Shown one piece after another: positions 22,432 to 63,300 of a stretch of DNA of 64,000 nt. The position numbers and the translations under genes are program-made. The notes under the pieces were generated by a model. It was not told the DNA's origin and searched no databases. It was given only the letters and a program-made list of their open reading frames with translations. How positions within the stretch are numbered: position 1 is the stretch's first letter; every line of letters starts with the position of its first letter. The stretch comes from Amoebophrya sp. A120 (Eukaryota > Protista > Dinoflagellata). The stretch spans positions 1,666,538 through 1,730,537 of the forward strand of contig CAJINV010000015.1 of NCBI GenBank assembly GCA_905178155.1, given 5' to 3'.

Positions 22432-25400
22432 ATGGACGCTGCGCGCCAGCTAATCGCCCGCGAGCTGCAACAGCTCTTGCAGCAAACCGCAGCCTCTTCC
22501 AGCAGCTTTATCAACTGTAAAAATGTCTGGGTCTGGAAGAGTGCCAGACTTGTCATGCAGGTTTTCCATGCCCCATGAGGTCTGGCATGTAGGACATAGC
22601 ATGACAGATTCTGTGCGAGTTCCATCATGCCTATCCTGCATGAGAAATTGCCTCTTGAGTAGGTCAAAAGTGGACAGCTTTTGGTAAGCATGCAACACAG
22701 ATTTTTGCATGCTTCAGATTTAGCATGACAAATTGCATTCTTCCAGACCCAGACATTTTTACATTTCATAAGCTTACAAAACCAACAAAACTACCTACTC
22801 CCAAATTACGAGCAGCAAAACACTCTCCCCGCTTTAGCCGAACTCTCTAGTGACCCGGAGTTTCAGCTGAAGCTGCAAAAATGCTTGCAGATCACAACCA
22901 ACACGGTGGATGAGCTCGTGGACAACCACGGGTTCTTGTCCGATCTGTTGCTGTTAGTGATCAAAAGTTTGAAGACGCTCCACGACGCGGCCGCTGGGAC
23001 GAACTACAGTACTATGCCGTCAACAATGTTGTCGCCGGGTTCCAAAACGACCGCGAAAATGCTGTACCTGTCCCTGTTCAACATCCTCGCAACCACTTTC
23101 CAGTCGTTCATTGGCCCCGCGTTTTCCACGCACGCCACCATTGTGAATCTGCTGTCCGCTGCCGGGGAGAAGTTGAACCATCGCACGGTGGAAATCATGG
23201 CGTTCGACGCGAAATCGGGGCGGTTTTGCGTCAAGGTTGAGAAGGGGGATGTGGATAAAAAACAGTGGAAGCGGATAAAACCGGAGAATTTGGTGATGCT
23301 GAAGTCGGACTCGAAAGATACAGTTACCCGACAGCTTGAAGGTGGCGCAGCAGGAGACCATCTTCAAGACGGCTTTGCAAGTACTTCAAAAAACAGTAGG
23401 TAATGTTTTTCGACGAACGTTTGACTTTGCGTTTTTCATGTACTGTTTTTCTACTTTCTTCTTCAGTTGATAGTGATAGTCGCGGCGTCTGATGACACGG
23501 TGGTCATGGACCTCCATGTTTTTTAGCTGCCCACACGTCGCTTCTGCCACCCAGTACTATGTAGAGCACAATCAAAACTTCACAGGTACTACTTCCCCTC
23601 CCCCGACCCAAGTGCACATGCGCAATCTGATGGCCGTAAATTGTCTGGAGTCCGTGTCTATCCTGTGCAAAAGTATCGTACTCGTACTAGTTGCAGGCAT
23701 GCATTACAAATTTCCAACCCAAGGCAAAACAGCATGACAAATTCCATTTCTCATGCTGGGCTAATTTGTATTGCAATTACTACTAGTACGAATACTTATG
23801 CAATTCATAGTGTCCGAAATTTTCGACTACCTGGTTACCGATTTCCTGTTAGGCCAAGAAGACGGGCTTAGCCAGCAGGTTTGCTTCGCGATGTACCGGG
23901 CAGTTCTGTTCACAACCGCATCCGCGACGGCCGGAGCTGCTGGTGGGTTATGGATTGCAAAAGCATCGTACTCGCATAAATGCATTACAAATTTTCTCAG
24001 CGTGAGAAATAAAATTTGTAATGCGGATTGGACTTAACAAAAAGATTAAGATTTGTGATGCATGATTGCAATACGAATGCGATGCTTTTGCACAGGATAT
24101 AGGTCGACGACCTCCACCGCAGCGAACAAAATGTCATCCACTGACTTATTCGAACTGTGCAACAACAGCGTCCCGGTCTTGATTTCCTTCGCCAGGAACG
24201 TTTTGTCCGCTGGAAACGAATTTGCGCAGAAACAAAGCACCAGTGCAATAAATCACCACTACCATCCCCAACAGATGCTCCACCTCTCCATTCTGCACCC
24301 CATCGCGCACTGCCTCTGGACGGACAACTACGTTCTACTAGCGGCTGCGGGGGTTGCCGGCGGGATAGATTCCGACTACGAGAATGACGCGATTTCGAAT
24401 GCGGCGCAACAGCATCAGTTGAAAAAACTCGACGATCTCCCGATCGACCACGTGGAAAGGTTTCATGCCGAGCTCGCCATGGCCTTCGTCGACGCGGATT
24501 TTTTGCCGTTAGTGATCCAGATCGTCAATTTATGACAGGGCACAACTCCTACTTCTCCTCCTCATTTGCATGGCATAAACAGCAATACAAGCATCGGGAA
24601 GAACGCAGGTTTTGCATGACAGATTTATCCAGGGGTTTTTTCGTAGTTGGGACTGTGTCATAGTAGGATGATTTACCGCTTTTTTACTTTTCTTTTCTCC
24701 CTTGACGCTAGTGTTTAGGTTTGCACACAACGTTATCCCTACCCAGATAGCAACAAATGCTCACGCCGCAGCCGTCCCAGGAGCTTTTATTTTGTTGTTG
24801 TCTCTCGGTAGTGATCACTTTGTCCAAACTTATTCTACCTAGAGTTTGTCGAGTAAGTGGCTACCGTTTTAAGGTTTAGAGAACGACAGGGACGCCCAGC
24901 CCTTTTTAGCTTCCCAACATGACAGATTTACCCAGGACTGTATTGGTGTTTGAGCTGTCAGAATCTGTCATGCAAAAAGTGCCAACAAGAGGCAAAGGGT
25001 GGACTTGGTATTTTGCATGACAAACGAGGAGGAGGTGGAGTTGTGCACTGTCATAAAATTCTACCGCCCAAACCGTGAATTCCACCTTCGGCGGGAAAGG
25101 CGGCGCTTACGAGAGCAGTCAAAAGTCCAAAATCACTGTGCAGGTCTTAATATCCTGTGCAAAAGTATCGCACTCGTAGTAATTGCAGTTATGCAATACA
25201 AATCTTTTTCCTAAGGCTAATCCGCATTACAAATTCCATTCCTAATGCTGCGGAAATTTGTATATGCAATTTATACTAGAACTAGTACGATACTTTTGCA
25301 ATGCATACTTAACCGCAGGCGGATCCATTCTCGGCTTTTTGGCCCGGAGATCCGTCCACGATCTGACGATTCGGCGGCATCTACAGCTCCACGGTAGGCA

Positions 25401-30903: not shown

Positions 30904-33900
30904 ATGGGTGGGAAAAACAAGAACGAGCGGCGCAACGCCAATAAAAAGCAGACGGAGAAGAAAGACGACAAGAAGAAAAAGGATGAAAGCAGCAAGCCAA
31001 ACGACGAGAGGCTCACATCCGAAGAGCTTGGATTTGTCATCCGCACAGGGCCTGATGCGACGCATCGGAACGTGCATACGCTCGAGGTGGACGCTCGGAA
31101 CATTGTGATTCACGCCGGAAAACAGGAACTGCTGTATGACGCGATACTACGATGTAACTACGGCGTCAAGTACGGCCTCGTCGGGAGGAACGGGGTCGGA
31201 AAATCGACCTTACTGAGAGCGATCAGCGATCGAGATGGTATAGAAGTTCATGTTCATCTATCATCTTGAGCTGCAGGGAGCCGACTACAGGACAATTTGG
31301 TCCTGCTGTCACAAGTTTTACTTGGCGCATTTTCTTTTTCACAAAGAAGAAGAACGAGAACTCAACAGCATGATCGTTGGACCAGCAAGAAGAATTTTTT
31401 ATAAACTAAAAATTGCAGGTCGTGTTGCTATCCCCCCGCACATGTCTTTGATGCACGTGGAGCAGGAGATTGTCGGCTCTGAGGAAATATCAAATGCAAA
31501 AATGTCTGGGTCTGGAAGATTGCCAAGTTTGTCATGCATATTTTGAATAAACCCATGATGTCTGTGATGCACCATGCCCTAGCGTCACAGATTTTTAGAG
31601 GACTTTGCGATGGTTCTACCGCATGAGAAATGCCCTCTCCGCGTAAAAAGCACAAACTGGAGTCCTCTACTTGCTGGTCATGCAATACAAATTTTTTGGC
31701 TCAAGACTTCTTGTCTTGTGGCCCTTTTCCCACTTTAGAGACGGGGCCGCACCCCCGTGAGATCAATTCGTCCGGACTCATCGTGGAGATCAACCCCCGT
31801 GAGATCCAAGATCCGTAGAGGCACTCTGTAACAGGCATCAGGTGCGGCTGGTGAACCTTTTGACTCACACGTAGATTGTAGATTGTTTCTCTAAAAGAAA
31901 AATCAAAGCAAAAAAAATGAGTACACACTTGCCCTCCATCCGAAGCGCGCACGTGCGCAATGAAGCTTCGATGGTCCCAGCGGGCATAACGCCCGGTCTT
32001 ACTCGTTACTCCCTTCATCTGCCCTCGCCAGCCGTCCCCAATGGCGTTCGATTGTGGGGCCCTTGATCCCCACGTAGAAGCTCTTCGCGGGTTTCTTCTT
32101 GCCGGGTGGAAGACGGTGTGCGTCGGTTTTTTTTTGGCGGTCTGGGAGTTCCGTGTAGGTCTTTGTTCCTAGGGGCGCTTGTCGACGCCCTGCGGCGGAG
32201 CGGGCGATCGGGAGGACTCGACGCTACTTGTGGACGCCATCTCCGAGCTGTCGATAGTAGAGGAGTTCTGCCGCACATCTCCGCGTCACGAGGATGCCGC
32301 GCCCACTAGCGGATCGCCCTGCTGCGCTGGAGATCAGGGACTTTTTATTTATTGTTTTTCGTTTGTCTCACACTCTCACACACTCGAATACTTATGAAAA
32401 GATCATAGTACCAGACCCATATTTCCTTTTTTTCTTCGTTTGAGTTTGTCGCCCCTCCTAATCCTTTGGTCTGTGTTGTGGCAGCGGATTGTCCTCTGAC
32501 CCTTACGTAGCCTTATGGCAACCCCTTTCCATATGATTGATCTCAGGTTTTGTGTGGTAGCTGCGCTGGCAGCGCGTTTGTGCGGCTCTCTACTCCTGCG
32601 AGGTGCGACGTTTTCGATGCGGCTGGGCTTTGCGGATCCAAACTGCGCGGAGGTGGTGGTGGCGATGGCGGGTTGATTACGGTGCGGGAATTCGGGTCGC
32701 CAGCCCCGGGTCTCACAGAGTACTGAACGGTGCTTACCAGCTGGATAGACGAGTGAGGGGTGATTACTCGTAGGGGAGTTGTTTATGGCTCGCGGTCGTC
32801 TTTCTGTCGTCCTGGCGTCGTTCGTGGGGGTGTGGCGCGGGGGTGGAGCGATCCTCGACGAGCGGTGCGGTTGCGGCTTTGTCGCGTCGAGCGGAGCGGA
32901 GCGTCGCTGTGTCTCCTCGGCATCGTCTCTTCGTGGCCTGTCGTGCGTAGTCCTAGGTGGGGTCCCTATCCCGGCCATTGCAATAGGGCTTTTTGGTGGA
33001 CTGCTGGAGACCCCAGTCCAGTCGCATCGCGACGTTATTTTTCAGCTGCAGGAGACCCCAGCTATCCCTTTGCTCTGCCCAAGTCCCTCGTCTTTGTCTG
33101 TTCGTCGTGTTTTGCCTGGTTTACCGCTGGAAACGATGCCGTGCTTTTGGAATTCCGGTTTCGACCAGGACATGCAGCCACTCTAACGGTTTCACTCGGG
33201 TCCGACCCCCGTTAGAGCTTGACCCCATCCCCCCGAGGTCCTACCTGAGGTAGTGGTCGTAAAGGGGGTATAGTGGTTGAGGGGTAAATAAGGTCATGCA
33301 ATACAAATTTTTTTAGAATCACAGACCCAGACATATTTGCAATCCATAGAAAACCGTGCTCCAACACGTGCTAAAATCCTATTTAGAACGCGAGTATGCA
33401 TTGCAAAAGTATCGTACTACGTATAAATTGCATTACAAAATAAAATTTAGGCAAGAAGAAGAAGAAAAGCGGAACTTGTAATGCTGTTTTACCTTAGGAA
33501 GAAGATTTGTCATGCATATTCGCAATTAGTACCAGTACGAGTGTCGATGCTTTTGCAGTTCATAGCGGGTACCTTCTCGACTTGGAAAAGCAGTTCATCG
33601 AAGATAATGAGAAAGATATGGTTATGCTTTGCAAAAGTATCGTACTAGTATAAATCGCAATACAAATTTATTTCCTCAGCATGAGAAATGACATTTGTAA
33701 TGCGGTTTTAACTTGAGCTTGACACAAAAACTTGTAATGCCTAAATGCGATTAGTAGTACCAGCACGATTCTTTTGCAATGCATAATGGTCCACGGTGTC
33801 ACTATGATGGAGGTCTACGAGCGACTAGACGAGCTCCACTCCGAGGAAGCTGAGGTAAACGCTGCAAGAATTCTCGCCGGCTTGGGTTTCACCCACAAAA

Positions 33901-38175: not shown

Positions 38176-38640
38176 AACTATCTATCACCCGGGCGGTGGG
38201 GATGAGAAAAAATGAAAATTTTGCTTCCTCCCCCCGCATGACTCTTTTGACTGTCATGGTAGAAAAATGAACGCGCGGCGATTTTTTTCGTGTGGTGAGA
38301 CGAGGAGATTATATCAAACTAGGCGACAAATTGAAATTCTATATTATCCGACATCACTACTTCCTTCGAACTCGCAGCATGAGTATCGAAATGAGGAAAA
38401 ATAGTGATGAAGAACCACTTGTTCTCGAGATAGAGATGTTGTACACTAGTATCGAGTTTATGTTGTACCAAAGCAGTACAAAGAAACCAAGCGAACCCAT
38501 TTATCATTTCTATAACTTGGCAAGAGCTTTCACTTTCACAGCACCACGAGCAGCTGGCGGAAAGTGTAGAAATTTTTCAACAGCCATTGAAGAAGACTGC
38601 ACGGCCCTGCTCGAGCTGTGCGTTGTTCCGGTTTCTCTTC

Positions 38641-38900
38641 TATCAAATGTAAAAGTGTCTGGGTCTGGAAGAATGCAACTTGTGATGCTGCGTTTGGATT
38701 CCAAAAACATCTGTATTGCATGAGTACCAAAGGGAATGCAATTTTTGCTAAAGCTGAGGCGGCATTTGTCATGCGGAATAGGCATCAAGAAGCTCTCAAA
38801 AAATCTGTATTGCTAGGGTATGCATCACAGACATCATGGCTCATGCAAAACGTGCGTGACAAGTTTCAGAATCTTCCAGACCCAGACACTTTTACAGTTA
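38641..38900. mobile_element. Introner family B outside recognisable CDS, with 51-bp flanking duplication
   Basis: 38590-38640 repeated at 38901-38951 (2 mismatches); right TIR clipped. Confidence 0.88.
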
Positions 38901-39482
38901 AAGAAGACTACACGGCCCTGTTCGAGCTGTGCGTTGTTCCGGTTTCTCTTCTGTCTCTTTGACGTGGGTGTGCCGCGCTTTTGTTAGCTTTCTGTGATCC
39001 ATGATCAGACGGAGCTGAACTGTATTTGTGAACCCCAGCGAAAGCGATCTGTTACTTGCAGCAGCAGGAGGAGGATCAGGTTTGTTCGTTGTTTCGTTCC
39101 TGACAGATCTCTTCTTTCGGTTCTCGAAGTCGCACTCCTTCTTTTGGTGGCGCGTGCTTTTGCCACTAAAAAAACGATCACGATGATGAGGATGAGGATG
39201 ATGATGTTTATGTGTTGGAGGTCAGGTGTGAGTCTTCTATGGATAGGGCCCGTGATACAGGTAAGTATAGCATCACACCAAAGTAAAACTCATAACTTTC
39301 ATTTCTCCAACATCCTTCACGAGGCCGTATTAGAAAAATGCCAAGAGCCACTACTTCTGCTTTGGTTAGTACCCCGGACGACGACCCAACCGCCTCCGCT
39401 GCGTATAATTCCCGAACCGGTGCGCAACACGGTTTCACGAGGACCTTGCGCTGTATAAGTCGTGTCATCCTCCAAGATCAAA

Positions 39483-41204: not shown

Positions 41205-41381
41205 GAAGTTCTCTATCACTGACAGAGCACGAGGAGTCCTTACTACCTGGGGCGGAGGAAGGGTTTGTCATTTTCTACCTGTTGCACAGGAGAGGACAAG
41301 AAGTACGGTGGGCGCGGCGGGGGCAGTGAGAAGTCGTCGATTTGTGTTGCAAATTTCCTTCGGACCACCGCACAAGAAATA

Positions 41382-45390: not shown

Positions 45391-48300
45391 ATGCCGCACG
45401 CCGTTTCCTGGTATTTGTTTGGCGAGCGCGCCCTGGATTTTATCCAGCCGCGTCATATTATGACCGTGCACAACTCCCCTCACTCTCATTTCTCATGCAA
45501 AATACCCAATCCACCTTTTGCCTCTTAGCGCTGTTTGCATGACAAGTGCTGGTAGCTGCCCAAATAAGTAGCGCTACACCCCAGCGCAAAATTGTCATAC
45601 AAAGCCGGCATTCTTGCCGATGCGTGTATTGCCGTTCATGCAATACAAATGAGGGGGGAGGGGAGTTGTAGTGCATTGTCATACACAAATCCCTCGACGA
45701 CCGCATCGCGGATGAGCTAGCCTCTAACCGAACCTGCACCCCCTCCTGCAAGCAGATCACGCGTTTAACCTTGAAAGCGATCTTCGCGGGTCTCACCGTT
45801 TCGCTCGCACTTATCCCGGAATGCCTCGCGTTATGGGAGTGCACAAGAACTCGCCCCCCTTCCCCCCATTTGTCATGCAAAACCGCAAGTCCATTTGTTC
45901 CTCTGTGGCACTGTTTGCATGACAAATTTCGGAAGGCCAAACAAACAGTACTACCTTTGGCCGGTGATCTGGGCATGCACAGGCCTCAGGAGTGCTGGTG
46001 TTTGTATTGCGGGTCATGCCATACAAATGAGGGGGAGGGGGACGAGTTGTGCACTCGCATACGCGTTCTCCTTTGTGGCGAATGTTCCGCCACTGGTTTC
46101 CCTCCAAGCCGTATGCTGTGGAAAAGTATCGTACTCGTATTGCAATCATGCATCACAAATCTTTTTCTTAAGTTGCATCAGCATTACAAATTTCTTTCCT
46201 CATGCTGAGGAAATTTGTAATGCATTTATACGAGTACGATACTTTTGCAGTTCATAAGCCGCCTGGATTATGTGCTTCGTCACCGCGCTCTTCAACGGCT
46301 ATCCAATGCAAATATGTCTGGGTCTGGAAGAGGACAAGCTCCTCATGCACATTTTCCATGATTCGTGATGTCGGCGATGTATGACTTAGCATGACAGATT
46401 TTTTGAGCGCTTTTCGATACGCATCTCGCATGACAAATGCCCTCTCCGCATAGCCAAATTTGACTCCCCTTGCTGCTCATGCTATACAGATTTTTTCAGC
46501 ATCCACATGTAGCATCACAAGTTCCACTTTTCCAGACCCAGACATTTTTGCAATGCATAACGGCTGTCCCGGGGTCATTTCCGGCGCAGCGGGGTCCATC
46601 GCGGTGTTATTGCCAACTTTCATGTCCGTACAAGAAGAGCAGAAATACCAGCCTTTTCTCGAGTTTGTCCCGGAAACCAGGCTGGGCCCGCACGGCACGG
46701 TCGGTGCGCCCTACTCGGACACGGAAAAAATTCTCCAGGCTAGGCAACTGGCTATGAATTGCAAAAGTACCGTACACCTAGTAGTGCAAATCGCATCACA
46801 AATTTGGTCAGCAGGACAAGTAGAACTTGTAATGCGGATTTGCCTTGAGAGAGAAATTTGTAATGCATGGCTGCAATCACTACGGTACGAGCGCGACACT
46901 TTTGCAGTTGATACTGGCGAAGCAGGCGCAATTGATCAAACTTTTCATCGCGGTCATGTGCAGCGGTGTGATGACCATGATCTACTCCCTCTGTCAAGCG
47001 CACTTTATCATTTGTAAAAACGTCTTCACCCCAGAGTTGTAATGCAAATCTGCATGCTGGGGGAAATGTTTTTGATGCGGAGACCCATTAGAAGCAGTTT
47101 CTTCCTGTGTTTTGCGATTTGTGATGCTCACATCCGCATGGTATGCTAGAGCAGTGATGCTGCTTCACTAGCTAAACCCGGCGACATTGCGAGCCCGAAT
47201 TTGTCATGCGCAACAGCCAAAGCTGGTTGATTTGTGTAGCAGATTCGCCATCTTGACTCTGGGGCGGGGACGTTTTTGCTTTCCATACACTTGCTGCTGA
47301 AATTAGTAACCGTTCCGGTCCGGCTCGGCTTCTTGATCGGCCTGGGGTTTTTGATGGGCTACACCCAACTCGAGTCCTTTGAAACCCCGGAATATGAATT
47401 GCAAAAGCATTGTACTCATATAAATGCATTACAAATTTCCTCAGGATTACAAATTGAATTTGTAATGCTGATTTACCTTCAGAAAAAGATTCGTAATGCA
47501 TGACTGCAATTGCTACGAGTGCGCTACTTTTGCAATGCATACGGAATTCCGCAACGGGATTCCGGACACGGACCAGTACGTTTCTGGGGGCAGATTGTAC
47601 GGGATGATAGTGTATCAATTCAAATATTCCTGGATGTCTGGAAGAGTACAAACTTGCCATGCAGAATTTCCATGCCCCCTAAGGTCTGGAATGCAGGACC
47701 TAGCATGGCAGATTCTAGTGCGATAGGTCTCTATGATCATGCCTTTCCTGCATGAGAAACTAACCCCCTCTCATGGTGTTCAGATGAAAAGGGCAACTTT
47801 TGATCCTGATCGCGAAAGACAGATTTTTGTGTGAAGATCCACAGGATGCATCACAAGTTCCATACTTCCAGACATCCAGGGATATTTGCAATCCATATAG
47901 TGCTGACCTGCATTTCCGTTTTGATCCAGACAATCCCGTGCAAATCGTGGCAGAAACTCCCTTATGAAATGGTGCAAAAGTGTCGTACTAGTAGTAACTG
48001 CATTACAAATTCGCTTGGCATCACAAATGAAATTTGTAATGCTTACAAGCGCTTAAGTAGCAAAGCTAAGTTGTAAGTTTTTAGCCTTTCAATACTTTAT
48101 GTTGCGTAGTAGCTTAGTGATTTAGTGGCTTTAGTAGGCCTAGAAAAGGCAAAGGGACGGACTGCCCTTAGATCTCCGATGTAATGCTGTTTCACCTTAC
48201 GAAGGACATTTGTCATGCATAAATGCGATTAGTACGACGAGTACGATGCTTTTGCACAGGATATCCCTTTGGCGATCATCTCCATTTTCGTCTGCACCGT

Positions 48301-51300
48301 CCTCGTATCAAATGCAAAAATGTCTGGGTCTGGAAGAATTCATGTTTGTCATGCTTGTCTGGCATGACTCTTAAATCTGTCATGCACGTTACCCAAGAGC
48401 TCCGTTTTTCTGTGATGCAGAGAGAAGCGCAGTTTGTCTTTGTCATGCAGACTAGGCTGCAACACCTAGGAGCTCAGAAACTTGTCATGCTGAGCCAGCA
48501 TGTGTAGCCTCATCATGAGACGCCACCCAGCATCACAAGTTTCCAGACCCAGACACTTTTATTTTTGATACCTCGAGTGGGGCGTGTTCCGGCCGCTGTC
48601 CCAGCGCTACCTGGCCGAGGATTACCAGTACGATGTTCTCAACCCAGTAACCAACGAGTCCAAGCAGATTTTCAATCGCAGCGCCTGGGCCACGACCCTG
48701 ATCGGCGATTTGGGGGACCTACCGATAGGGCATTTCTATCCTGAGTAAAAACGTCCCCACACGACCAGATTCAATATGGGAAATCTGCTAGACAAATTAG
48801 CCAGCTTTGGTGGTTTCGCATGACAAGTTTATTTTCCTCGTAGTGTACACCTATGCAGAAGTGCTACAGTGTGTGCGTGTTTGGTCCCCCCTGAGCGACG
48901 TGTGTGTGTGTGTTGGTCCACACCCAAGTCCGAAAAAACCTAGCCTCATAACAGCCGCGCCCTTATGGTATAGATCAACTGTTCGTCATAGAAGATCGGC
49001 GCTCAGATTGCTCTCGGGCTGGAGGAGGGAGTAGCGCGCAGCAGTCCGCTAAAGGGCACACTGCCAACATCATCATCATAAATCCTTTCCAACTACTTCA
49101 GAAGCATCACAGATCTAGCATATCATGCCGATTATAGCGCCACAAATTCCAAATTGAAATTACGACTAGAGAATGCTTCTCATGGGGCTCCGCATGAGAA
49201 ATGTTTTTCGCATGGAGATTTGCACGACAAATCTGGGGTGGGGACGTTTTTACACAGGATGACTTCCCCCAGTTCTTCTTTCTGGATTGGTTTGACGAGA
49301 AACTCACGTACGGAATTATGCACGAAAAAAACTGTGTAAGTGTAAATCTGTGATGCAGAAAATGCAAAACAGTTATACTTGTCATGCTCGACATGCGTGA
49401 TCGGCTCGCTTCCTATGTGTTTTCCCTTCCTATGTGCGCATCACAAGTTTTTCCTGTCATGGCAGAAAAACTTGTGATGCTGTTTTCCCAAAAGACTTAC
49501 ACTAACACAGTTTTTTTCGTGCATAGGAGTCCCGATTTTGAACGAGGACGGAAACACAGGAGCAGCTCATGGGCAGAGCGATACTAACGGGAACTCCAAT
49601 TCCTACGAGATCTTGTGGCCGTCCGTAGCGGATATCGGGCCGATCCTGTATTGTGTGCAAAAACGCTCCCACCCCATAGTCAAGTTGGTAAATCTGCAAC
49701 ACAAAGCTCCAAGTTTTGGGAGTTTTGCATGACAAGTTTCCATCTGTAGCGTAGTGCTGTTTAGCGCGAGAGCAGCCGGATGAGAAAGCGAGCTTCTCAT
49801 CCTGTTTACAACATTACAAAGTCCAAAACACGATGGGAAATCATGCCTCTCATGGAGATGCGCATTACAAATCTTCCTGTCATTGCACATTTGCATGACA
49901 ACTATGGGGTGGGGACGTTTTTACATAGGATATCCTGTTTCTCGCATTCATGGCCTCGATCGTCGGGTTAACTGAGACGCTGTTGACGTTTCAGAAAATT
50001 GCGTCCGAACTGAAGCTGATCGATAAAACAAGCTTGGTGCGTATGAGAGTGTCAGGATCGAGATCGTCAGAGTTGAAATAATTTGCGATGCTTAAAACCG
50101 ATACCAGTCCGAAGCCCACTTATCAAGCGGCGCATGATAAATTTTCCGAGCACCGGAATCCAATTTGTCATGCTGTTTGGGCACAGAAGACTGCTTTTGT
50201 CGTGCTAGTTTAGTAGCTCTATTTCAAACCCTAAACAGGCGCACAATCGGCGTCACTTGCCATCCCGGCAAGGCAGGCACTTCATGCCTTGCATTTTATG
50301 CATGACAAATCGTTTCATATACCAACCCCTGCCGTAGCCATTTTGGCTCAAGATCCTTAATATACCAACCCCTGCCGCATTGGCGGGGGGGATCCGCTGG
50401 GCCCAGTCACAATCTTCAACAGCGACCTAAATGTGAAAACATAAGAGGGGGAGCAATGCCGTAGATAGATTAGATCCTTCGTGATTCCTTTTATTTTGTC
50501 CTCAGATGCCACGCCGGCACCTCCCCCGAGTCTCTGCGTCTAAGAAGTAACTCCCGATCGTGGCGGGTCAGAGTCATTTTCTTCTCTTATTGTAGTCTCT
50601 AGCTCAAGCCTCGGCACCCCGTGTGCCTGGAGGCACGTGTACAAAAATGAATCAAAATGACCTGGCGGCGGCGCCTCGGGAAGAGCCCGACTTATCGCCT
50701 CGCACCCTCTCCAGAAGGCGGTAAGTATGTAAGTGGCTCGCGGGCTGCTCGCGACAGAGGAGAACTCGAGCCCCCGCGTTTTGAGAAGTCGCGACCCGAC
50801 CTACAGTGGCGCTTTCGCTGTTTTGCCCCTGCGTTGGTTGCTCCAGACAGGCCAGACGACGGAACCATATCGGGTCTGGAGTTCTGGAAAGGGTTACGGC
50901 CACCATGCTGCCGGTGGTTTAAGCAGCACGGGCCGGCAAAGACGAACGGGCGCCAGGTTTCGCGCGGATGCCCCCCAGCTCGCCCAAGCCAGTAGCAACA
51001 AGCTCAGTCGAGTCTTGTTCCCCAAGCACAATAGATGCGAGAAAGGGGCGCACAATAGATGCGAGCTCAGGGCTTGGCAGCGCTGGGGGAGATGGTCTTG
51101 GCCACGACGCGGGAGCCTTCCCTCCGTGGAATCGACAATGGGCCTGGCGTTGACGTTTTGCGCGTCTATCTTAGCTGCGCAGCGGCTCCATCGTCCGTCA
51201 CGTCCGCGCCTCGTTTGGGTCATGAGGTCATGATGTGCAGCTCCGTCGATTCATTCTCAGCTGCAACCTTTGCACTAGCCTCTGCCTGGCTCTCAGGTGC

Positions 51301-54300
51301 TTGGCTGTCAAAAGACAAAGGCGCTTTCATATTCTTACCGGAATTTCCTAAACCGCATCGCAGGCTGGTTTCGTGCCTGCGGTGTCCGTAAGATTCCGAA
51401 TAATATCTACTTTGTACGCATGGGACCAGCTGCAGGCTGCTGCTTCCTCATAGCAGTTAGCCTGGTCGGTCCCTGCACAGTTTGTGAGCACTATAAGTTG
51501 GATCGTTGGCGAACGTTAAACGTGCTCTGGTGGCGACAAGTGTGGACCGTTGGCGAACGTTAAACGGCCCAGCCGCATACTGCCGTGTGCGTAATTACAC
51601 TGGGGGGATTCAGGGTAGTACGGAGACGATGTTTTGCGGCATCACCCTGCAGCAAAAGGTGAATGAGCTGACCAGGAGTTTCCTGCTGGCGTGCTATTGC
51701 CCGCGCTCCCGTCGCCTTGAAACGCACCGCATCGCCCGCGCGGCGGATGCTCTTCTTCTCGATCTGCAAGACATGCATTACTCTGCCCGCACCTGGACGC
51801 CGTACTCCTGTGCGGACGTGGATTCCCATTTCCATGACCCCGATGACCCGGCGCGTTGCAATCTGGGGCACTTTGACACTCTGCAGGCTACTCGGGCTAG
51901 GTCGTTTCTGCAGGGCATTGTGGTACAGGAAGGCCTCAGCGAAGAGGCTGCTGCGGATCTACTTGCGGTGGTGGACGATAAAGCGTTGTGCATCCTGGCG
52001 CACAAAGACGATCTGGACAGCGGAAATCTGGCACGAATTTTCGCCACGCTCAAGCAGGTCACCGAGATAAACTCCAGGCATTGCCTGCAGTTCTTCTCAA
52101 AGTCCAAATTTGAAGTAATTGCGGGCTCACCCTACTGGGGCCCGGACGTGAGTTCCAGCAATCTGGCCAAAGTGTGGGAGCTGGCCGCCAAGCACTTGAA
52201 CCCGTTCTGTGTCACGCCGGTAGTCAGCCTGAAATGTAAGCTGGTCGGGTTTTTGTTCAACACGCACAGCTCCCAGGCCGACGTTCTCTACGGACAAATT
52301 TTGGCTAGGCTGAAGTGGAGCCGCATTGCTGCGGAACTTGTCTGCAAGTACTTGCGGTATGTGAATGGGGTGCAGCTGCGTACCATCCTGGTCTGGGCCT
52401 ACATCAGTTCCATTCTGCACTTACTCGTGGTCGGCGTGCGCATCTTCCCTGAATCGTACTGGCAGGAACTGCTGTTCCAGATGTCGTGGAGCATTGCGGA
52501 CATGGTTGGGCTTTCGGTGGAAACGACGAAGCACTACCTGGAGGCAAACTGCATCCCGCGGCACGACATACACAAGTTAATTTTTTCGAAGCAAATGCTG
52601 AACCTTACCGACCCCCGCTTGTTGGCCACGAAAATTTTGCGATGCGGCGCAGCAAAGTGGACGGCTATCAGTGGCACTGCCTCCGTCGCGGCCTACGCCA
52701 CTGCCCCCGTGCTGATGGGCGCGGACGACAAGGAGAAAGCACTGGGATTCAGTGCCGAGGGTCTAGTGACATTGCGGGAGATCCAAAAAGCAGACTTGTA
52801 CACACAGGATGTGTTGCGCGACGTTGTCGGGGATTCCGCGTTGTGCAAAAGCCTGGCGACTACTACCACCGATTCGGTGGACGCCGCAGGCAGCAATGCG
52901 TCTGCCCTGCCCAGCCTTTTCGTCAACAAGAGCTCCTCTCCTTCCGCAGCTGTCAGAGCCACTGTGCTGGTGCCCCTGCCCTCGGCGTCGGGCCGTCTCT
53001 CGTCCGCACTCAATCGCAACTACGACGCTCCTGTTACCCACGCTGCCCCGCCTGCGATTTGTAATGCCTCCGGCTGCTGCTTCTTTTTCCGCGAGAACGA
53101 CTGCGACCTCGCTGTTCTGTATAGAGGCAAGGCGGCCAAGACATACCACACTTCTGACCATGGCGAGTTCTCCTGCCCCAGCCTCCGCTCGGACGTGCGG
53201 TTTTTGTCTTGTGTGGTGCGTGCAATGGAGGATTGGCTGGGGGATTGTGCTGCCGGGCTATTGTCGACGCATCTGATTGTGGCCGGTGTATCGCTGTCGC
53301 CATCTCTGCGTAGCACTGCGATCCATCGTCTTTTCCGGAGCATGATTTGGCGATGGGCTCCGGGTCGGGTCAGCATTATTTATCATAAACGCGGCGGCGC
53401 ACTGTCTCCCATGATGTACTCGGAGGCCCAAGCTGTTTCTCATCGTTCCGACATTTTGGATCTACCAAACCGCGGTGCTGGTGTCGTCTGGCCGATCCGG
53501 ACACTCAGTCTGCCGTTTGACTTCAAGACCAACGATGAAAAACTCTCCTTGCAGCATTTCCGAAATCGGGTGAACGCGAGGTGCAAACCGAAAACCACGG
53601 CGGCAACCACGGGCGGTGGCACGCTGGGGGCTTCTAGCACCAATACTACGACGGGCGGCGAGACATTGGTGTCGGGGGCTGATCCCTCTACGGGGACGCA
53701 AAATACCGCGTGCGGTTTACCTATCCCGACGGTGGCGGACCCTATGCCGGTGGAAAACGTTACCTGCACCCAGCAGGCGCCTACTGGATCGGCTATGACT
53801 TTCCCGACCGCGCCACGGCCTGCCATGCCAGCTATTGCTGCGCCGCCGACCATGGACTCCCAACTTTCGAACACTGGTGAGCAGGTGCCACTTGTGACGT
53901 GCAAGCCCGCCACATCACTCCCTACCCAGTCCAGCCGCCGTGGTAAACAGGACACCGCCGCCGCCAATTCTACCAAGCGCGCGGTGACTACCAACGTTAC
54001 AGTCAGCCCGGAGGCCAAGTCGAGGAGAAAAGGCAAAAAAAATACCACAGGAACCGGCCGCAGCACTGTGGTGCCCCACGTCACTGCTACCCAGTGACTT
54101 TTCTCGGTATCGCCGTCTGCTTCCTCGGACCAGCGGATTTATCTGTTAGCTTCAGTGTGAAAACCAGAACAGAAAATTAATGCAACTCATGTCTGTGTAG
54201 CGATATAATGACTGCGTTTTGGTGTAATAGTTTCGCAGGTGCGCTTGTGTCTATTCCTGACTATGCATCGCGTAGTCTGTGCCTGTGGTTGGCGGGCCTA

Positions 54301-57300
54301 TATATTTACGCACCACGCGCTGACCTTGGCTGTGTAGTGACTGCGCCGCCACTCCGTTACAGCGCAAGGTTGTGGCTTCAGGAAAAGATCTGTTTTTTTG
54401 TCTATGACTGAGTCGCGCTCTGAGTAATCCTGGAGTGTGGACTGCCCTGATGTGTGAAGGCCTGCCTACGAAGACAGCTGAGATACAGAGGACATGACTC
54501 CTGCTTTCGTTGTTTGTCGTTTGTGTAGTTTCGTCAATTGCAGCACTTTCATCCGCAGACCTGCCCGCGAGCCTGCCTCTGGCGCTGTCTGCCTGCGCGC
54601 TACCATCGACCCGGTGTGGGCGTCTAGTTCTGCCTGCCCCCATCGACGGCGTCGGGTTTTGCTTACATCGCGCGATGCTATGCTGGTCGGAGCCGGTTCA
54701 TCCTGCCTCCCGCCGTTTATCACCGGAGCATCCTGGGTCGAGCGGAACTCGGCGACCATCTGGATGGGCAATTTATCCTCCCCGTGCATGCTTGTCGACC
54801 TGCTGCTGGTGTGGACCCCGGTATCATATTTGTGCTGCGCAAACAATGGGTGCCGCATGCGCCTTTCCGAGCGAAGCACGGCGTTCCCCCGGGTGCGTAT
54901 CACCAACTACTCGCGCACGCCATTCGACTTGCTGTTAGTCGCGATCCCTGTATCTAGATCTTGCTGCACAGTTAAGAGCGGACACTACTGCCTATTCGTA
55001 GTCTGTCATGCGCGGAGCACTTGCTGGACCTGACTTTTTACTTGGCCTGTTTTGCCGTTCCTGGTACTACACTGACACTTCGCGCTCGACATTTACTTCT
55101 ATTTATTTCTATAGGCCTTGGTCTTCTGTATTCCATTTGTGGCCGGGATCTCCGGAGCTTTGCATGCGCGCGCTCTTTGTATATTCTCGGACTGTTTGCA
55201 TTGGACCTGGTTCCTGTTTCGGGATTTGTATTTGTCGCCCTCTGTGGCCCCCCGATGTGCACTTACTACGCTGGTGGTTGCTGTTGCTTAGTGTCTTAGT
55301 CTGTTGTCTTGTCCTCCTTATCATTTTATTTTCGCTCCGACAAGCATGGCAATCTACTCCGCTTTGCATGTGTCCGCTCAATTTTTTAGTTTCCATACAG
55401 ACCCCGGGTAGTGCCGTCATTGCGACCTTCCCCCTACTGGACTCCACCTGTGGCTGCTGAACAAATCTTCTCCGCGTGGTGCCGCTGTTTAGTGATGGAT
55501 ACGCTATCGATGACGTCATGTTGGGCCCGAACATTGATTCCCGAGCACCCGACCGCCGATCTCCAGTACCCCGCCGGCGGCGAACAGATTCCCAGGCAGT
55601 GGGTCTCCGCCGTCTCGTCCGAGCCTGGGGCTCAACTCCCTCGCCATGTAGCCGGTTTGGGGCATTTCATGGCGTGTGCGACCGTTTTCCGGCGCAACAG
55701 CCTGTTTCGGATCCATGTTGTACATCACGCACGGGTAGATCGTTCCAACAGCGCACGATGACGACAAGGAAGACGACGAGCCGCATCAGCGAGCCACCGG
55801 CTTGATGAGGGTTCCTGCAGGCCCTACCAGCTGTCGCGTCCTTGGTTCGGTACCTCCTCCCCGCCGGTCCAAATTAAACCTGCTGGCACCGACTTCCGTG
55901 ATTAAGATCCTCCACGACCTACATCTTCCTGCTGCTACATACGCTGGCCGTGTCTCTAGATGGTTTTGCTCGTCCTCTTCGACTAGTAGCCAGGTTGGAG
56001 CTTTTCGTGGGGTGTGCGACCTTATTCCGGCGCAGTAGCCCGTTTGCGGATCCATGTTTTACATCATGAACGGGAGGTCGTTGCAGCAGTGCATGGAGAT
56101 GACGGGCAGCAACAGTCGTGAGCCACCGGCTTGTGGATTACTGCCGCCTACGGATCTCTCCTACTTGGCAAAAGTAAGGAGTGAAAGTTTAAAAGTTAAG
56201 AAGGTTCATTTTATTAATAAAGAATGTCAGTAAAGCGCTCTTGGTCTCTTGTGAAGTCCTCTGCGTTATCCTTTTATCTATATCGCGGCTTTATGGTGCT
56301 TAGCACCTGGGTCCTTGGCCGACCCGCTCGATGACTATCTACCCGCGCTGCAGGCTCGCTCCCCTGCATGCGTCCTTTGTGTGGACTACCTTGCTATTTG
56401 TGTATCGTAGCTCAAGCGTTCACTGTCTCGCAAAAATTACTCACAGCTTATCACTTACATGATAAAAGACGCTGCTTAATTCTAACTGCGTGTGTGCTCT
56501 TGCTTGTTTATTTTTTTTTTAGTTCTCTATGTCGGCTCGCGCCCCGGCTCCGATTCTGTCTTGATCTGTTTATTCCCGGCCCGCCTCCCGGATATAGTTT
56601 TTGTGCTTTGTCTCCTCGTGGCTCCACACCCACTGCATTTATGGCCCCTGCGACTGCCGACTTATTATTATTTTGGGTTCGCGTCCCCACTTTTGTCCTC
56701 CCCTCAGCCGTATCCATGCGTTTGGCGCGTGGTTACACAGGCCGGGATTGAGGCCTACTCTTATTGTATTGCTTGTATGTGGCGACTTGCATGACTCGGC
56801 GTCGCTTAGTCTTTTCTATCTGTCCGCCGCGTGTTACCTACTTCATGATGAGCTTATGTGGTGACTTTTCTTGCTGCTAGTGCATGACTCGCTGGTGATT
56901 CGTTGCCATGTGGATCTTGGCGTGCGCATTAATTCTAATTTTACTTCCTCACCGTCGCCTGAAAAAATGCAACTACGTATTTATTTGTTTCGGAGGCCCG
57001 CTTCCCTCCTATCTCTAGTTTCTTCAGCCGATCCGAAGGTAGTTTGTATGTGTGCCCTGGCTTTCCGATATGGAGCTCTGATTTGCATGCTAAGTCGGAA
57101 AGTCGCCTCATGCGCGGAGTTGCTTGAGGACACGTTGTATGATTTTGGGACCACGTACCTACTAGCCCGAGGGGGTGCGGGAGCCTGAAAAAACGAACGT
57201 TAAACGTATGTTGGCGATAAGTTGGACTGGTGGCGAAAGTAAGGTAAAGGCAGCGTAAGTAGTTGGATGTGCCCGGGGATGATGGTGATGGCTTCGGTCC

Positions 57301-60300
57301 GCCTGACTCCGCGACCTGGTGGCCGAACCACGTGCGGTTCGGTGCCCTTACAGGTTGTGTAGTGGTTTCGGTCGGTTTAGCATGACAAATCGTTTCAACT
57401 TTGGCGATTTCAAACCTGACGCTTCCATAGTGCAACCAGGAGCGGCGGGGCAGCACCCGCACCAGAACGGCGGCGGGGCCTCTTATGACACCCTCAGAAT
57501 GGAAATCCTCAAAGTGGAAATAATTTGTGATGCATGAAATGCGACACCAAAAAGACTGCATTGCAGATTGCAGAGAACGCAATGGAAGCCGACTATTGTG
57601 CATCTACGGGCTCAGACTTGGGCTCCTGATTAGCATGAGAGGAGGGCACCCCTTTGCCTAACTAGCATGACAGACACGTTTTGAGTGCCCGGGAAATTTG
57701 TCATGCGCCGACTACAAATGGTGCTCCAACTGGAGTCGTTTTTTTGCATTACAAATTATTTCCACTTTGAGGATTTCCAACCTGAGGCTTTCATACCTCT
57801 TTGGCTTCTAACGCAGGGCGAAGCGGAAAACATGGTGCTGGAACTACAGACTCTAACAGCAACGCATCTTCGCCAAGAGATCGCAAAATAACGACAGAGA
57901 AAGTTTTTCACTCGGAGGAGGCGGATCCGTTGCTGCGAGACGACCGGCTTTCGAGTTCAATAGGTACAAGCGGAGATTTTAATATCAACTACGATCATCA
58001 TTCTAACAACTACCAGGATATTGACATCAACGTGTCGAAAAGGAAAAGCGGCCAAGAAAATAAACAAGATTTGCCCGCCTCTCCCCCCTCCACCGAAGGA
58101 GATGTAGGTATCCGAACCCCGAAACTGCGCCTGAAATTTTCCTCCAAAATCCGGGTTGTATCCAGCTACCAGGAGCTCTTTGTGCAGGGCGTCGCGAACT
58201 TGGTTTGTGGGCTGTTTGGCAGCATGGGTGGGTGTGCGATGATTGGCCAATCACTGATTTGCGTCCGAAACGCAAGTGATGTGGAGATCCGGGAGTCTGT
58301 GATCGGGGCCGGGAACATTGGCAGACTGGCCCCGATCTTGGCGGCTTTGTTCACGTTTACCTTAACAATGTACCCGGTGGTGCTGTCTATCATCCCGGTT
58401 TCCGCTTTAGTCGGCGTCATGCTGGTATCCTCTGCAAAAGTATAGTACTCGTATATTAAATGCATTACAAATTTCCTGAGCATGAGAGATAAAATTTGTA
58501 ATGCTGATTTTTTAGCTTTGGAACAAGATTTGTAATGCTTGTTTGCAATCGAATCACTACGAGTACGATTCTTTTGCAGTGGATAGCTGGTCGTTTCCTA
58601 CCACACCATCGACTTTCGGTTTCTCCTATCAAATGCAAAAGTGTCTGGGTCTGGGAGATTGCGAGATTTGTCATGTTTGTCTGGTATGACCAAAGAGGTT
58701 GTGATGCGTGTCCAAGAAGAGACCCTTTTGCCTGTCATGCAAAAACGCAGTTTGTCATGCGAAAAACGCAACACAAAGAAGCGCACACATTTCTCATGCT
58801 TGGCTGCGCATTACAGAGCATTCACTATTCCCAACGCAGCATTACAAGTTTCCAGCCCCAGACATTTTTGCACTTGATATCTCCCCGCGGCTTGGAAAGC
58901 GGTTTTTTGGTCGGAGGAACAGAAGAAGAAACGGTTCGCTTTGGTGTATAACAAGGGAGGCCTTTTGGTGGAGGTAGAGGAAGCGGAGATGGAGCTCGCT
59001 CTGGCCGCGAGATCCTTCGTGACCGAGCGGATCCACGGGAAGGGAATCAACGAGGAAGAGCTTTTATTCGGAGAAGAGAAAGAAGACGAAGAGGCTCTTC
59101 ACAACTATATCGCAGCACAAGCGAAGAACAGTTCTTCTAAAAGCGCGAAGAAGAAAAAAAGAGGCAAAAAAGATTCCAAGTTCATCACGGTGCCCCGGGA
59201 AACCAACATGAAAAAAGACGACCCGGTTTTCTTTCCCAATTTTGACCCGGAGAACCCGAAGCTGCTCATCGATCCGGAGCATTTGACCGAAGAAGAGGAG
59301 TCACAGTTGCGAGAGGAGGACGCGATGCTTCACGCCAGCCTCCAACAGATGAAAAAAAAATCAGGCAGTTTCTTTCATCATGCCGACTTCGACCATGCTG
59401 GTGATGGGCATAAAACCCCCGGGATAAATAAAAGCCGAACGCCCTCGAAGATGTTGATAATGACCCCAATTAAGAAATCAGGCAGCAAGGAGCAGTATCC
59501 TGTGCAAAAGTATCGTACCTACGTAGAAATTGCCTTTATGCATTACATACAAATCTCTACTACTTTGTCATATGTAAAGCAGCATTACAAATTATGCTGG
59601 GCTAATTTCTTGTAATGCAACTTATTATACTAGTACGATGCTTTTGCATTGCATAAGCAGATGCAGAGCCCCTTTGCAGGTCATATTCATACACCAGCTT
59701 CCGTCGATCCCTTATCAATTGCAAAAGTGTCTGGGTCTGGAAATTTGTGATGCTAATTCATGAATTGTGGGGACACTGCTATAGGCAGCCACGCATGGCA
59801 AGTTTCTGGGCTCCTTTGTGTTTCGCTTTCCGCATGATAAACTACATTTTTGCATGACAGGCAGGAGGCTCTTTTCCTGCTCACGCATTACAGGTTTAAG
59901 AGTCATGCGAGACACGCATGACAAACTTGCGCCCTTCCAGACCCAGACATTTTTGCAGTTGATATCCCTTAATGGGGAGCAAAATCAGTTCTATATCGGG
60001 GAACCACACCGGCAGCAGCAAAGGCATATCCTGTGTAAAAACGTACCCACACCATAGTTGTAATGCAGATTTGCAAAGACAGGAAGACTTGTAATGCGCA
60101 TCCGCATGAGAGCCATTTCCAATCGTGTTTTGGAATTTGTGATGCTGTGAACAGGATGAGCAGATGCATCTGTGATGCGGCTGCACTTGCTAACCTGAAC
60201 TACGCTGCGGAGTGCAACTTGTCATGCGTGACTCACAAAACTCCTCGACTTGTGTTGCAAAATCCCCATCCTGACTCTGGTGTGGGTAGGTTTTTACTCA

Positions 60301-63300
60301 GGATAAGGCAGCAGCAATCATGATCATCACGATCAGTTTGAGTGCATCCAGAGACGGCGCGGCAGCCTCGAGCGCGTCGTGGTAGCGGCCTCGTCGCCTA
60401 GCGACCTTCAGTACGTGGGCGAGGACAATACCACTACACATCTGCATGCCCAGCATCATGGATTTACTCTTGGTAGTAGTCAGCATCTACTGTTGGGAGG
60501 CACGAGCAAGCGCACCAGTCAAGGAGAGGCTTCCCTGGTCGTGTCCAATCATTCGGTAGGGTCGAGGTCTAGTGTGCGGTCCGGGACGGGGCCGGGGACG
60601 AATGGCACACTATCAAATGCAAAAATGTCTGGGTGTGGAAACAACTTGTGATGCTGGGTGGCGTATCATGAGGAGGCCACAAGTGCTGGCTCAGCATGAC
60701 AAGTTTCTGAGCTTCTTGGTGTTGCCTATTCTGCATGACAAACTGCGTTTCTGTATGACAGAAAAATGCGGGTCTTGCGACGTAATGTGCATGACAAATT
60801 TAAGAGTCATGTGAGACAAGCATGACAAACTTGCATTCTTCCAGACCCAGACATTTTTGCACTTGATACACGCACTGCGACGACAAAACGACAACCATTC
60901 TCCCGATTCAGCTGGGGCTGGTTGCTATGAAAGCCTCAGGTTGGAAATCCTCAAAGTGGAAATTACTATCTATTATATTCATGCGAAAGTAGAGGTCTAC
61001 AGAGGGTCGAAGAGAGGTGGCCGAGAGGTAAAAAAGAGGTCGACAGAGGTCAAAAAGAGGTCGACAGAGGTGGAGAGGTGGCGCGGGAGGTCATTCGAGA
61101 GGGTGGCCGAGAGGGTGCGCGAGTATAGCCCGCCGAAGGGCTCGCCCTAAGGCCGCGCCTATAGGGACCAGAGGGGGCCGAGAGGGTCCAGAGAGGGCAA
61201 GCGAGAGGTGGACAGAGGTGCCGGGAGGTTGCGCGAATAAGGGCGAACCTCTCGCGCACCCTCTGGGCCACCTCTCGGCCACCTCTGTAGACCTCTACCG
61301 GCGACGAGTATAGCCGGATTATTAGCAACACCTCTCGGGAGAGGTCAAAAAGAGGGTCTGCGAGAGGGTCAGAAAACCCCGAATCCGCCCGGCACGCGGC
61401 CGGTTTTGTTTGGGCCTTTTCATCGCGCAGGCCCGCACCCTCTCGCGCTACCCTCTCGCGCACCCTCTCGCGCACCCTCTCGCGCCACCCTCTCGCGCCA
61501 CCCTCTCGCGCTACCCTCTCGCGCTACCCTCTCGCGCTCCCCTCTCGTGCCAACCATTTCCGTCGGGAAGCAAATAGGGCGGGGGCGGGATGGTGATCAA
61601 AATAGGGCAGCGCGGCCCCCGTTCTGCTTCCTTCGGCACCTATGTCGAGGTGGCTTCTCTTCGCCCCCAAGCTTCGTTGCAGTTGCTCCCTGCGCATAGC
61701 GCCAGCAGGCGCGGGAAGCGCGCAGGAGGCCGCGCGGGCTGACATGGCGCAAACCGGCGCCAGTAGTTCCCTCGGTCTGTCACGCTGTGCCCAAAGACCC
61801 GGCGCTGCGGTCCGACCCGCGCATTGTCCTGCCCCGCCACAACAGCCTTGCGCCCCGGCGGCAGCCGGGGCATGGCTGGTATTTTGTAATGCAAAAAAAC
61901 GACTCCAGTTGAAGCGGCGTTTGTAGTCGGCGCATGACAAATTTCCCGGGTACTACTTAAAGCACGTCTGTCATGCAGGTTAAGGCAAAGAGGTGCCCTT
62001 CTGTCATGCTCAGTTGTAGCACGACAATGAATTCTTCACCCCTAGCAGGACAGTAGTCGGCCTCCATTGCGTCCTCTGCAATACAGTGCTTTTTGTCGTC
62101 GCACTTCATGCATCACAAACCAGTTCCACTTTGAGGATTTCCATTCTGAGGCTTTCATAGTTGCGTCCGACCGAAATTCGGTGTCGACCGGCCCGCGGTC
62201 TCGAAATATCCTACGTAAAAACGTACCCACCCCATAGTCAAGATGGGGAATCGGCTAGACAAATCCACAAGCTTTGGCTGTTTCGCATGACAAATGTGGA
62301 CGCGTAGTGTAGTGCTGTTTGAGCTAGTTCAGCAGCATTACAGATCTAGTCTTTCATGCTGATTAGAGGATAACAAATTTCCGAACACCATTAGAAAATG
62401 CTTCTCATGGGGCTCCGCATGAGAAACATTTTAAGCATGCAGATTTGCATGACAACTATGGTGTGAGGACGTTTTTACACAGGATACGAAAAATCTCCTC
62501 CTTATCCCAGGACGTGGTAAAGTCGCACGACTCGCAGCTGCACCAGACGGGTTCAGCGGCTGTGGACAGTAGACACCGGAACAGTACAAGAACCATGATC
62601 AAGCGGGGAAACAAGAATAAACAAGTCGGTAGTGGTCCAGGTCCATCATACACCTCGACTCCCGAACAAGAGCAATTTTCACCTGCTGGCGGAGGTACTG
62701 ATGAGCAACTGGAGATGTTGAACAGCGACGATGAAGACGAAGTAGACACTCCCTCCGGAACGACAAGTACTAAGAATCGCAGTTATATCTTCAAGAATCC
62801 TCTGTACCACCGAGAAAGGCTGGGCACGATCGATTCGCAGCTAGGGTTGCCCGGATACTTCCCCCCCACCGCTGGTCGCGAGACAGCTACCTCCAGTACT
62901 ATGGGCGACGAACAAGAAGATGTTGAAGATTCTTTTTCTGAAGAGCAAAGAAACCACTTCTATGATTTGGAAATTTTGAATAACCGGGCGAATGAACACC
63001 TACACGATGGCGAGGCCGACACCTATGGGAGTGACAGGACCGAAATCGACAAAATCGAAAAGTTTCATTTTGTAATGCATAAAATGTAGGGCACGCATGC
63101 CCTGTGTTGGGGACGACCACGCAAATGAGACCGAGCGCAACAAGCCTGTTTAGGTGAAGTAGACGATGCGCTGCCAGAGTAGCATGACAGGAGCAGTCTG
63201 CTTTGCCCAAACAGCATGACAGATCGGATTTTGGTGCTCTCGAAATTTGTCTTGCGCCGCGTGGAGACTGAGGCTCGAACTGGTATCAATTTTATGCATC

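Follow-up and report, generated by a model that had tools for sequence, protein, structure and literature searches.

A shared introner motif as the possible target of LINE-type retroposons in Amoebophrya sp. A120

Introduction

Do mobile elements that become nested in other mobile elements choose the site at which they insert? The question is raised by a window of 64,000 nucleotides from Amoebophrya sp. A120 (contig CAJINV010000015.1, positions 1,666,538 to 1,730,537 of the forward strand), by which we mean the whole stretch of DNA that was analysed. The window is gene-dense and eukaryotic (G+C fraction 0.495), and 78 intervals of short elements with terminal inverted repeats (TIRs), the introners that form introns inside the genes of this dinoflagellate, account for 0.30 of its insert-free sequence. 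A120 introner ends have been described as inverted copies of TAT, seven nucleotides and AAA, and the hosts in the window match this description (PMC7789003).

A sequence-only reading of the window had proposed that five inserts nested in introners have junctions that overlap a recurrent introner motif and that integration is directed to it by sequence or tethered there by a bound protein. Four of these inserts, I1–I4, are flanked by target-site duplications (TSDs). With a probability of roughly 0.6 we take them to be products of target-primed reverse transcription by an Amoebophrya long interspersed nuclear element (LINE) of the apurinic/apyrimidinic endonuclease (APE) type, the protein of which reads the core GCATNACN. 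Repeated use of one target word by the family of I2, with one copy placed on the same base, supports sequence-directed integration. Targeting is not a general rule for nested insertions and is limited to the retroposed class that bears TSDs.

Results

Nested inserts with target-site duplications

Six nested inserts (I1–I6; Table 1) were detected in the window, and the four that are linked to the motif are exactly those with TSDs. Each of the 64 other introner intervals was compared with its best sibling, and only three show gaps, of 15–19 bp. Outside introners, a scan of the window for exact direct repeats of at least 12 bp gave no further evident TSD-flanked insert. Removal of the insert together with one TSD copy converts the hosts of I1–I4 into elements that align end to end with their siblings. 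The TSDs are 9–22 bp long, and 67 of their 68 bases are identical between the two copies.

Relics of the spliced leader, the dinoflagellate sequence of which was taken from PMC12014239, occur at only two places in the window, the 5′ junctions of I2 (the last 12 nt) and I4 (all 22 nt). Both inserts must therefore have had an RNA stage, and the leader fixes their orientation. The repetition of bases 50360–50377 ahead of the I4 leader looks like the signature of a template switch. None of the four 3′ ends carries poly(A); the ends are structured and finish in one or two A residues. Some LINEs have no 3′ tail. The right ends of I1 and I3 have about 85 nt in common (score 41 against a null maximum of 32), and a likeness between the 3′ ends of I2 and I4 passes an end-anchored test (0 of 1000 shuffles; one of 40 pairs).

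The exons around H2, which is loaded with I2, continue an ABC-F ortholog without a gap, the best relative being that of Amoebophrya A25. This continuity fits removal of the whole 1.86 kb unit of H2 and I2. Among the joints listed there is no spliced joint across a loaded host introner, and two raw RNA runs are uninformative on expression or splicing since their reads fit only partly (752 of 753 and 10 of 10).

In the same gene, a 76 bp stretch of ABC-F exon is duplicated around a 1.08 kb GC-rich block (34093–35476). An introner is present only in the second exon copy, directly preceded by the CAG in which the block ends. The coding sequence may have been duplicated or disrupted here.

Position of the junctions relative to the motif

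Unrelated introner families of the window contain the motif repeatedly, in either orientation. Inside introners lie 105 of the 113 exact copies of the 10-mer (6.5 per kb, compared with 0.13 per kb outside) and 224 of the 252 copies of the core GCATNAC. The motif is thus dense in introners and specific to them. Two of the four TSDs overlap an exact 10-mer. With one mismatch allowed all four do, against 2.05 expected; the probability that all four overlap is 0.063, and that of the summed overlap is 0.0011. Bare overlap is therefore a weak signal.

A sharper signal comes from the offset of the TSD start. With the left edge of the 8 bp core GCATNACN, taken on either strand, as zero, this start lies at +1 (I1), 0 (I2), 0 (I3) and 0 (I4), with a raw P of 5e-6. 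When any offset is allowed for each relative orientation (two free offsets) and the orientations of I1 and I3 are freed, P is 0.0008–0.006.

All five junction strings quoted in the sequence-only reading are present where it placed them. Four of them belong to true TSDs, which are longer than quoted; the fifth, at I5, is not duplicated, and the true junction there lies 3 bp from the motif, at chance level. For the TSD-bearing class, sequence-directed integration with a nearly fixed cut offset, a feature that the sequence-only reading had suggested looking for, is supported by the core-edge offsets (0, 0, 0 and +1) and by the target-word reuse described next. It does not extend to I5 and I6, which are no nearer to the motif than chance.

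Reuse of one target word by the I2 family

I2 and its TSDs were compared with public contigs, and the figures given here cover the contig records listed. Across much of its body I2 has a summed contig depth of about 160, which climbs to 1170–1380 in the last 110 bp. These sums do not count copies, but one variant at 33271 is common to seven separate I2-family contigs. Such a profile, rising towards the 3′ end, is what 5′-truncated copies give.

In one contig the target is followed by 23 nt of the I2 3′ end and then by the target again (depth 44.9 in run X1; 412 nt in X7; a variant in X3). This truncated copy has an 18 bp TSD of its own that starts on the same G as that of the I2 in the window. 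Its outer flanks differ on both sides, so that it represents a separate insertion event. At a second joint in X1 (depth 45.7) the same target word is joined to a longer I2 3′ fragment. Two diverged I2 3′ ends, which extend into the target by 7 bases (X7 record 22) and by 29 bases (X8 record 29), may come from the same locus as this second joint. Among the contigs listed, at least two and at most four further I2-family loci thus lie in the same target word. Under random insertion, two on-target matches have P ≤ 1e-6 even if insertion is confined to introners; this value uses rough inputs of 500–1760 sites in an A120-sized genome and 14–30 copies.

I2 resembles short interspersed nuclear elements (SINEs) in that it is non-coding and multicopy and has a 3′ tail common to longer elements. 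Three long contigs (943–12310 nt) end in a diverged copy of the I2 3′ region (32950–33190) and are probably partner LINEs. The two open reading frames (ORFs) of I2 that were tested have no Pfam match. No RNA polymerase III head (tRNA, 7SL or 5S) is recognized by Rfam at the gathering score, and the head of I2 is the spliced leader.

A metagenome scan with a combined motif and leader pattern returned 39 loci, 38 of which were rejected as chance matches with low counts of motifs and introner ends. The remaining locus, L008, carries these introners. It has a full leader and a 186 nt insert, with a TSD of 9 bp from +2, or of 11 bp from 0 with one extra base, in GCATTACAAA. Since the pattern that picked L008 demands the motif, only its offset is informative. 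Viral contigs gave no motif and leader match, no introner end and no relative of the LINE protein P0001 described below, and prokaryote genomes gave no match.

Some sibling introners in run X3 natively resemble the 3′ end of the leader at the position of 31690–31706, a likeness that could provide 5′ microhomology for leader-capped cDNA.

I4 and the protein of the candidate LINE

I4 is a 5′-truncated LINE fused to a non-coding module that has the leader as its cap. This module ends in sequence resembling the I4 3′ region at 57190–57250 (score 59 against a null maximum of 32), a sign that reverse transcription may have jumped from one RNA to another. The I4 ORF has no Pfam match and a word-indexed protein search gave no relatives, while an exhaustive search found 12 proteins. 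The best relative has 1738 amino acids and shows 50% identity to the I4 ORF in its C-terminal half. Five of the six relatives looked up are assigned to Amoebophrya A120, A25 or AT5.

An alignment of the full-length relatives contains the APE motifs WN, GDFN and DH and the reverse-transcriptase (RT) motifs QG, VDD and LGF. An N-terminal APE-like endonuclease is present in the full-length relatives P0001, P0002 and P0010 and is missing from the truncated I4. Its assignment to the endonuclease/exonuclease/phosphatase family comes from Pfam (E = 4e-4 in P0010) and from all ten best family-bearing matches in the Atlas; the AlphaFold model of the domain is poor (predicted local distance difference test, pLDDT, 37.8). 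A model of the RT (pLDDT 62.5) has LINE-1 ORF2p (E = 4e-8) and R2 as its best structural matches in the PDB, with an identity of about 10% in the match to L1, and searches of the LINE protein against Pfam RVT and PDB sequences gave no match.

The assignment to LINEs thus draws on an RT of the type found in retrotransposons without long terminal repeats (non-LTR), an APE domain in the same ORF of the relatives, TSDs of variable length, and 5′ truncation with intact 3′ ends. A 3′ poly(A) or simple-repeat tail, a further LINE feature, is lacking in I1–I4. The features of the restriction-like endonuclease type (R2, CRE, NeSL) were not found: the relatives have an N-terminal APE-like domain and no match to a restriction-like endonuclease family.

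Other identities were considered for I4. The I4 body is single-copy in run X1, and a host RNA or retrogene was considered for this reason and dropped, as the ORF is a fragment of an Amoebophrya LINE. A Penelope or retrozyme reading was also dropped: Rfam shows no ribozyme or small-RNA head, and a scan for the hammerhead pattern gave one unconvincing match. No RNA data set is listed as containing I4.

The long 3′ non-coding part of I4 contains a direct repeat of about 200 bp, 70% identical between 55630–55845 and 55968–56168, which has no Rfam match. P0001, P0002, P0003 and P0010 form an Amoebophrya LINE ORF2 lineage that Pfam RVT misses and that carries no name in the annotation. The SNARE domain to which the annotation fuses P0003 is probably an artefact of the gene model.

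Inserts without target-site duplications

I5 has no duplication of 6 bp or more at its junction. The junction is A60962|T61880, and this A|T placement restores the sibling length exactly. I5 begins TTACTATCTATT, and its contig depth is 5344 compared with about 45 for unique DNA. The junction lies 3 bp before a motif, as happens by chance with P = 0.17–0.29. Helitrons are known by an A|T target, the absence of a TSD, and a 3′ hairpin followed by CTRR. I5 is like them in its A|T target, its lack of a TSD and its 3′ hairpin with CTGG, and differs in that its 5′ end is TT instead of TC. The lack of a TSD in Helitrons is also described in PMC12130899. I5 is probably a separate insertion of the rolling-circle type that is near the motif by chance. 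A Tc1/mariner insertion with a duplicated TA was rejected, since I5 lacks inverted ends and the A|T placement gives back the sibling length.

I6 lies 11 bp from the nearest motif (P = 0.51). DNA contigs contain further copies of it, and in the RNA-like run X7 a related contig reaches a depth of 226.

Discussion

A possible mechanism of targeting

Under the reading that we favour, element RNAs would be trans-spliced to the leader, after which the LINE endonuclease would nick the bottom strand at the left edge of the 8 bp core. The 3′ OH would then prime cDNA synthesis on the structured, non-polyadenylated RNA end, and template jumps would produce 5′ truncations and chimeras such as I4. A second nick 9–22 bp downstream would make the TSD. 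As the insert would leave the mRNA together with its host introner, the target would offer it shelter within genes.

The first nick of target-primed reverse transcription corresponds to the left end of the TSD, so that in I1–I4 it is placed at the core edge regardless of the direction in which the core reads. A base pair and its inverted form look much the same from the minor groove. The inner pattern of GCATNACN, S-W-N-N-W-S in terms of strong and weak pairs, is symmetric, so that a readout from the minor groove could accept both orientations. The APE hairpin loop of L1-type enzymes reads this groove (PMC1950540), and we favour a direct readout of the motif by the APE domain as the likely mode of recognition. 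A short core pattern cannot alone explain the reuse by I2 of a word of at least 14 bp, and longer contacts or pairing between RNA and target therefore probably contribute.

Alternative explanations

The site could also be kept without a specific endonuclease if the RNA read through into its old flank and the extra bases paired with the nicked strand of another introner. The absence of poly(A) from every 3′ end and the reuse of one word by I2 copies agree with such pairing, and there are precedents in SART1Bm, which anneals to its target, and R1Bm, which requires downstream target sequence (PMC7265360). It does not predict, however, that the related inserts I1 and I3 (perhaps also I2 and I4) stand in opposite orientations at the same core edge, and we consider it unlikely. 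Nicks at the core edge in either orientation would be expected if a putative host or transposase protein bound to the motif recruited the LINE complex or exposed nickable edges, as TFIIIB/C do for TRE5-A, and a motif that occurs both ways across unrelated introner families does resemble a protein-binding site. Yet the nick falls on the motif itself whereas TRE5-A integrates about 50 bp away, and I5 and I6 ignore the motif. Tethering of this kind is an improbable explanation as well.

Chance followed by selection would leave inserts only in non-coding, motif-rich introners and make the offset pattern a post hoc coincidence. The overlap probability of 0.063, the share of the insert-free window that consists of introners (0.30) and the two of six nested inserts that lie off the motif would all agree with it. 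Against this stand the I2-family copies that arose independently in one and the same target word, one of them on the same base, and an offset P of at most 0.006 with the offsets freed, and we regard coincidence as quite improbable. Finally, some other nuclease could have broken the DNA at the motif, as in an abortive transposase cut, and cDNA could have patched the break, the LINE endonuclease taking no part. The mixed RNA donors, the 5′ microhomology and the snap-back or duplicated junction bases are what patching might leave; clean TSDs of 9–22 bp with intact element 3′ ends fit target-primed reverse transcription instead, and one family reuses one base. This last explanation is very unlikely.

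Several observations weigh against targeting by a LINE endonuclease. The window provides only four inserts, and the 8 bp core was defined post hoc. With the 10-mer of the sequence-only reading at one mismatch, no rule with one or two offsets fits all four inserts (I2 is at −6). No single-strand consensus is evident at the nick site. The orientations assigned to I1 and I3 are deduced from their common end, and the likeness of the I2 and I4 3′ ends fails a local alignment test. Contig matching favours I2 copies with flanks like those in the window, so that on-target copies may be over-represented, and in a second I2 copy that bears the leader the 5′ flank does not resemble this target (a loose end at 31694). 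The offset of L008 alone has P = 0.21. Related LINEs are also present in strain AT5, the introns of which are 99.98% canonical (PMC7789003, PMC12130899); the LINE lineage therefore does not need these introners.

A broader version would have leader-capped LINEs and SINE-like passengers homing to introners as a class by cutting, in either orientation, at the edge of one pseudo-symmetric motif common to many unrelated introner families, possibly guided by an introner-mobilizing or splicing protein. We consider it conceivable and rather doubtful. If it were true, the elements would be carried within genes and removed by splicing without cost, and the positions of their nicks would footprint the factor that binds introners.

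Relation to known systems

Transposons are listed among the known targets of non-LTR retrotransposons (PMC4640811), and examples of retrotransposons aimed at other transposons come from a few animals. Xenopus Tx1L inserts into Tx1D, and here too an APE-type non-LTR element would use a set site in a non-autonomous TIR DNA transposon (PMC4494074, PMC1950540, where Tx1 is described as an animal clade). The Amoebophrya case differs in that the target is an intron-forming element inside dinoflagellate genes, that the motif is found in several introner families of separate origin and is used either way round, and that the RNAs carry a spliced leader. The likeness to Tx1 lies in a target sequence preference that includes DNA transposons. 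The crocodilian SINEU-3 in Mariner-N4_AMi is likewise a SINE-like passenger that reuses one target word, with TSDs, in an abundant non-autonomous DNA transposon (PMC4494074); I2, in contrast, is headed by a trans-spliced leader and not by a piece of small nuclear RNA, is 1.6 kb long and has an introner as its target.

Dinoflagellate retrogenes with relic leaders also arise from leader-capped RNA that is copied back into the genome (PMC12014239, PMC7789003), whereas I1–I4 are mobile-element RNAs with TSDs and a target preference and not copies of cellular genes. Entamoeba EhLINE1 has a non-LTR endonuclease with a similarly short GCAT-type preference, 5′-GCATT-3′, but this enzyme is restriction-like and nicks inside the word (A-T, T-T), compared with an APE-like enzyme and a nick at the edge here (PMC1635306). 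As both the type of endonuclease and the position of the nick differ, the likeness is probably coincidental.

The introner hosts agree with the A120 elements already described in their inverted TAT, seven nucleotides and AAA ends, and non-LTR elements have been reported in that genome; the available portions of the two papers (PMC7789003, PMC12130899) describe neither the internal motif nor insertions into introners, and the word 'nested' does not occur in either text. Dataset S2 of PMC12130899 lists non-LTR introner families of A120 and may bear on novelty. No report of introner-targeting retrotransposons was found in searches of an open-access collection that lacks most subscription journals. 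What is new here is the introner target in genes, the use of one motif both ways across families, the leader-capped and tailless RNAs, and the very divergent LINE protein.

An element that targets introners would gain tens of thousands of harmless genic sites in a compact genome. The internal GCATNAC motif is singled out as a functional site of Amoebophrya introners, elements whose transposition and splicing still lack an explanation. The divergent LINE protein could be a new sequence-selective APE endonuclease; its relatives are annotated only as unnamed products.

Other features of the window

Table 1. Nested inserts, their hosts and junction features (window coordinates).
Feature	Position	Strand	Remarks
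Host introner H1, carries I1	24531..25056		TIR element, starts TAT; empty site aligns end to end with 3 siblings
I1 left TSD	24615..24633	+	Right copy 24918–24936; 13 bp exact, 19 bp with 1 mismatch; starts at +1 in core GCATGACA
I1	24634..24917	+	284 nt non-coding retroposed fragment, without poly(A)
Host introner H2, carries I2	31488..33347		In ABC-F gene; sibling comparison; flanking exons contiguous in ortholog
I2 left TSD	31676..31697	+	22 bp; right copy 33292–33313; begins at left edge of inverted core
Spliced-leader 3′ 12 nt at I2 5′ junction	31694..31705	+	T run of leader overlaps TSD (microhomology)
I2	31698..33291	+	1.6 kb SINE-like multicopy element; structured 3′ end, no poly(A)
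Host introner H3, carries I3	47963..48263		Sibling comparison
I3 left TSD	48035..48043	+	9 bp; right copy 48180–48188; spans core
I3	48044..48179	+	136 nt fragment of I1 family
I6	48848..49092		Sixth nested insert; no TSD; replaces about 12 bp of host introner 48738–49260
Host introner H4, carries I4	50042..57429		I4 is 7.06 kb; sibling comparison
I4 left TSD	50300..50317	+	18 bp; right copy 57380–57397; begins exactly at GCATGACAAA
Full 22 nt spliced leader in I4	50331..50352	+	Preceded by copy of element bases 50360–50377
I4 5′ non-coding module	50353..51562	+	Partly repeated in genome
I4 866-codon ORF	51497..54097	+	RT motifs 4–7, thumb and C-terminus of an APE-RT LINE protein; homology from about 51563
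I5	60963..61879	+	Helitron-like high-copy element; between A and T, no TSD; 3′ hairpin then CTGG; host introner 60926–62159

Some further observations concern the introners themselves. Single motif copies at 4459, 8878, 20835 and 40315 stand in seemingly ordinary introns, which, judged by eye, are possibly decayed introners. About 50 bp of flank is duplicated around the introner at 38641–38900 (38587–38955), far above the direct repeats of 3–5 bp described for such elements. Within 12545–15121, an introner fragment (12570–12730) with both ends cut lies between 37 bp direct repeats and adjoins a tandem duplication of about 1.17 kb that has diverged. On the right the fragment breaks off 4–5 bp past a GCATGACAAA motif. 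A GC-rich intergenic block at 1500–2620 contains several short palindromes and is possibly another mobile element.

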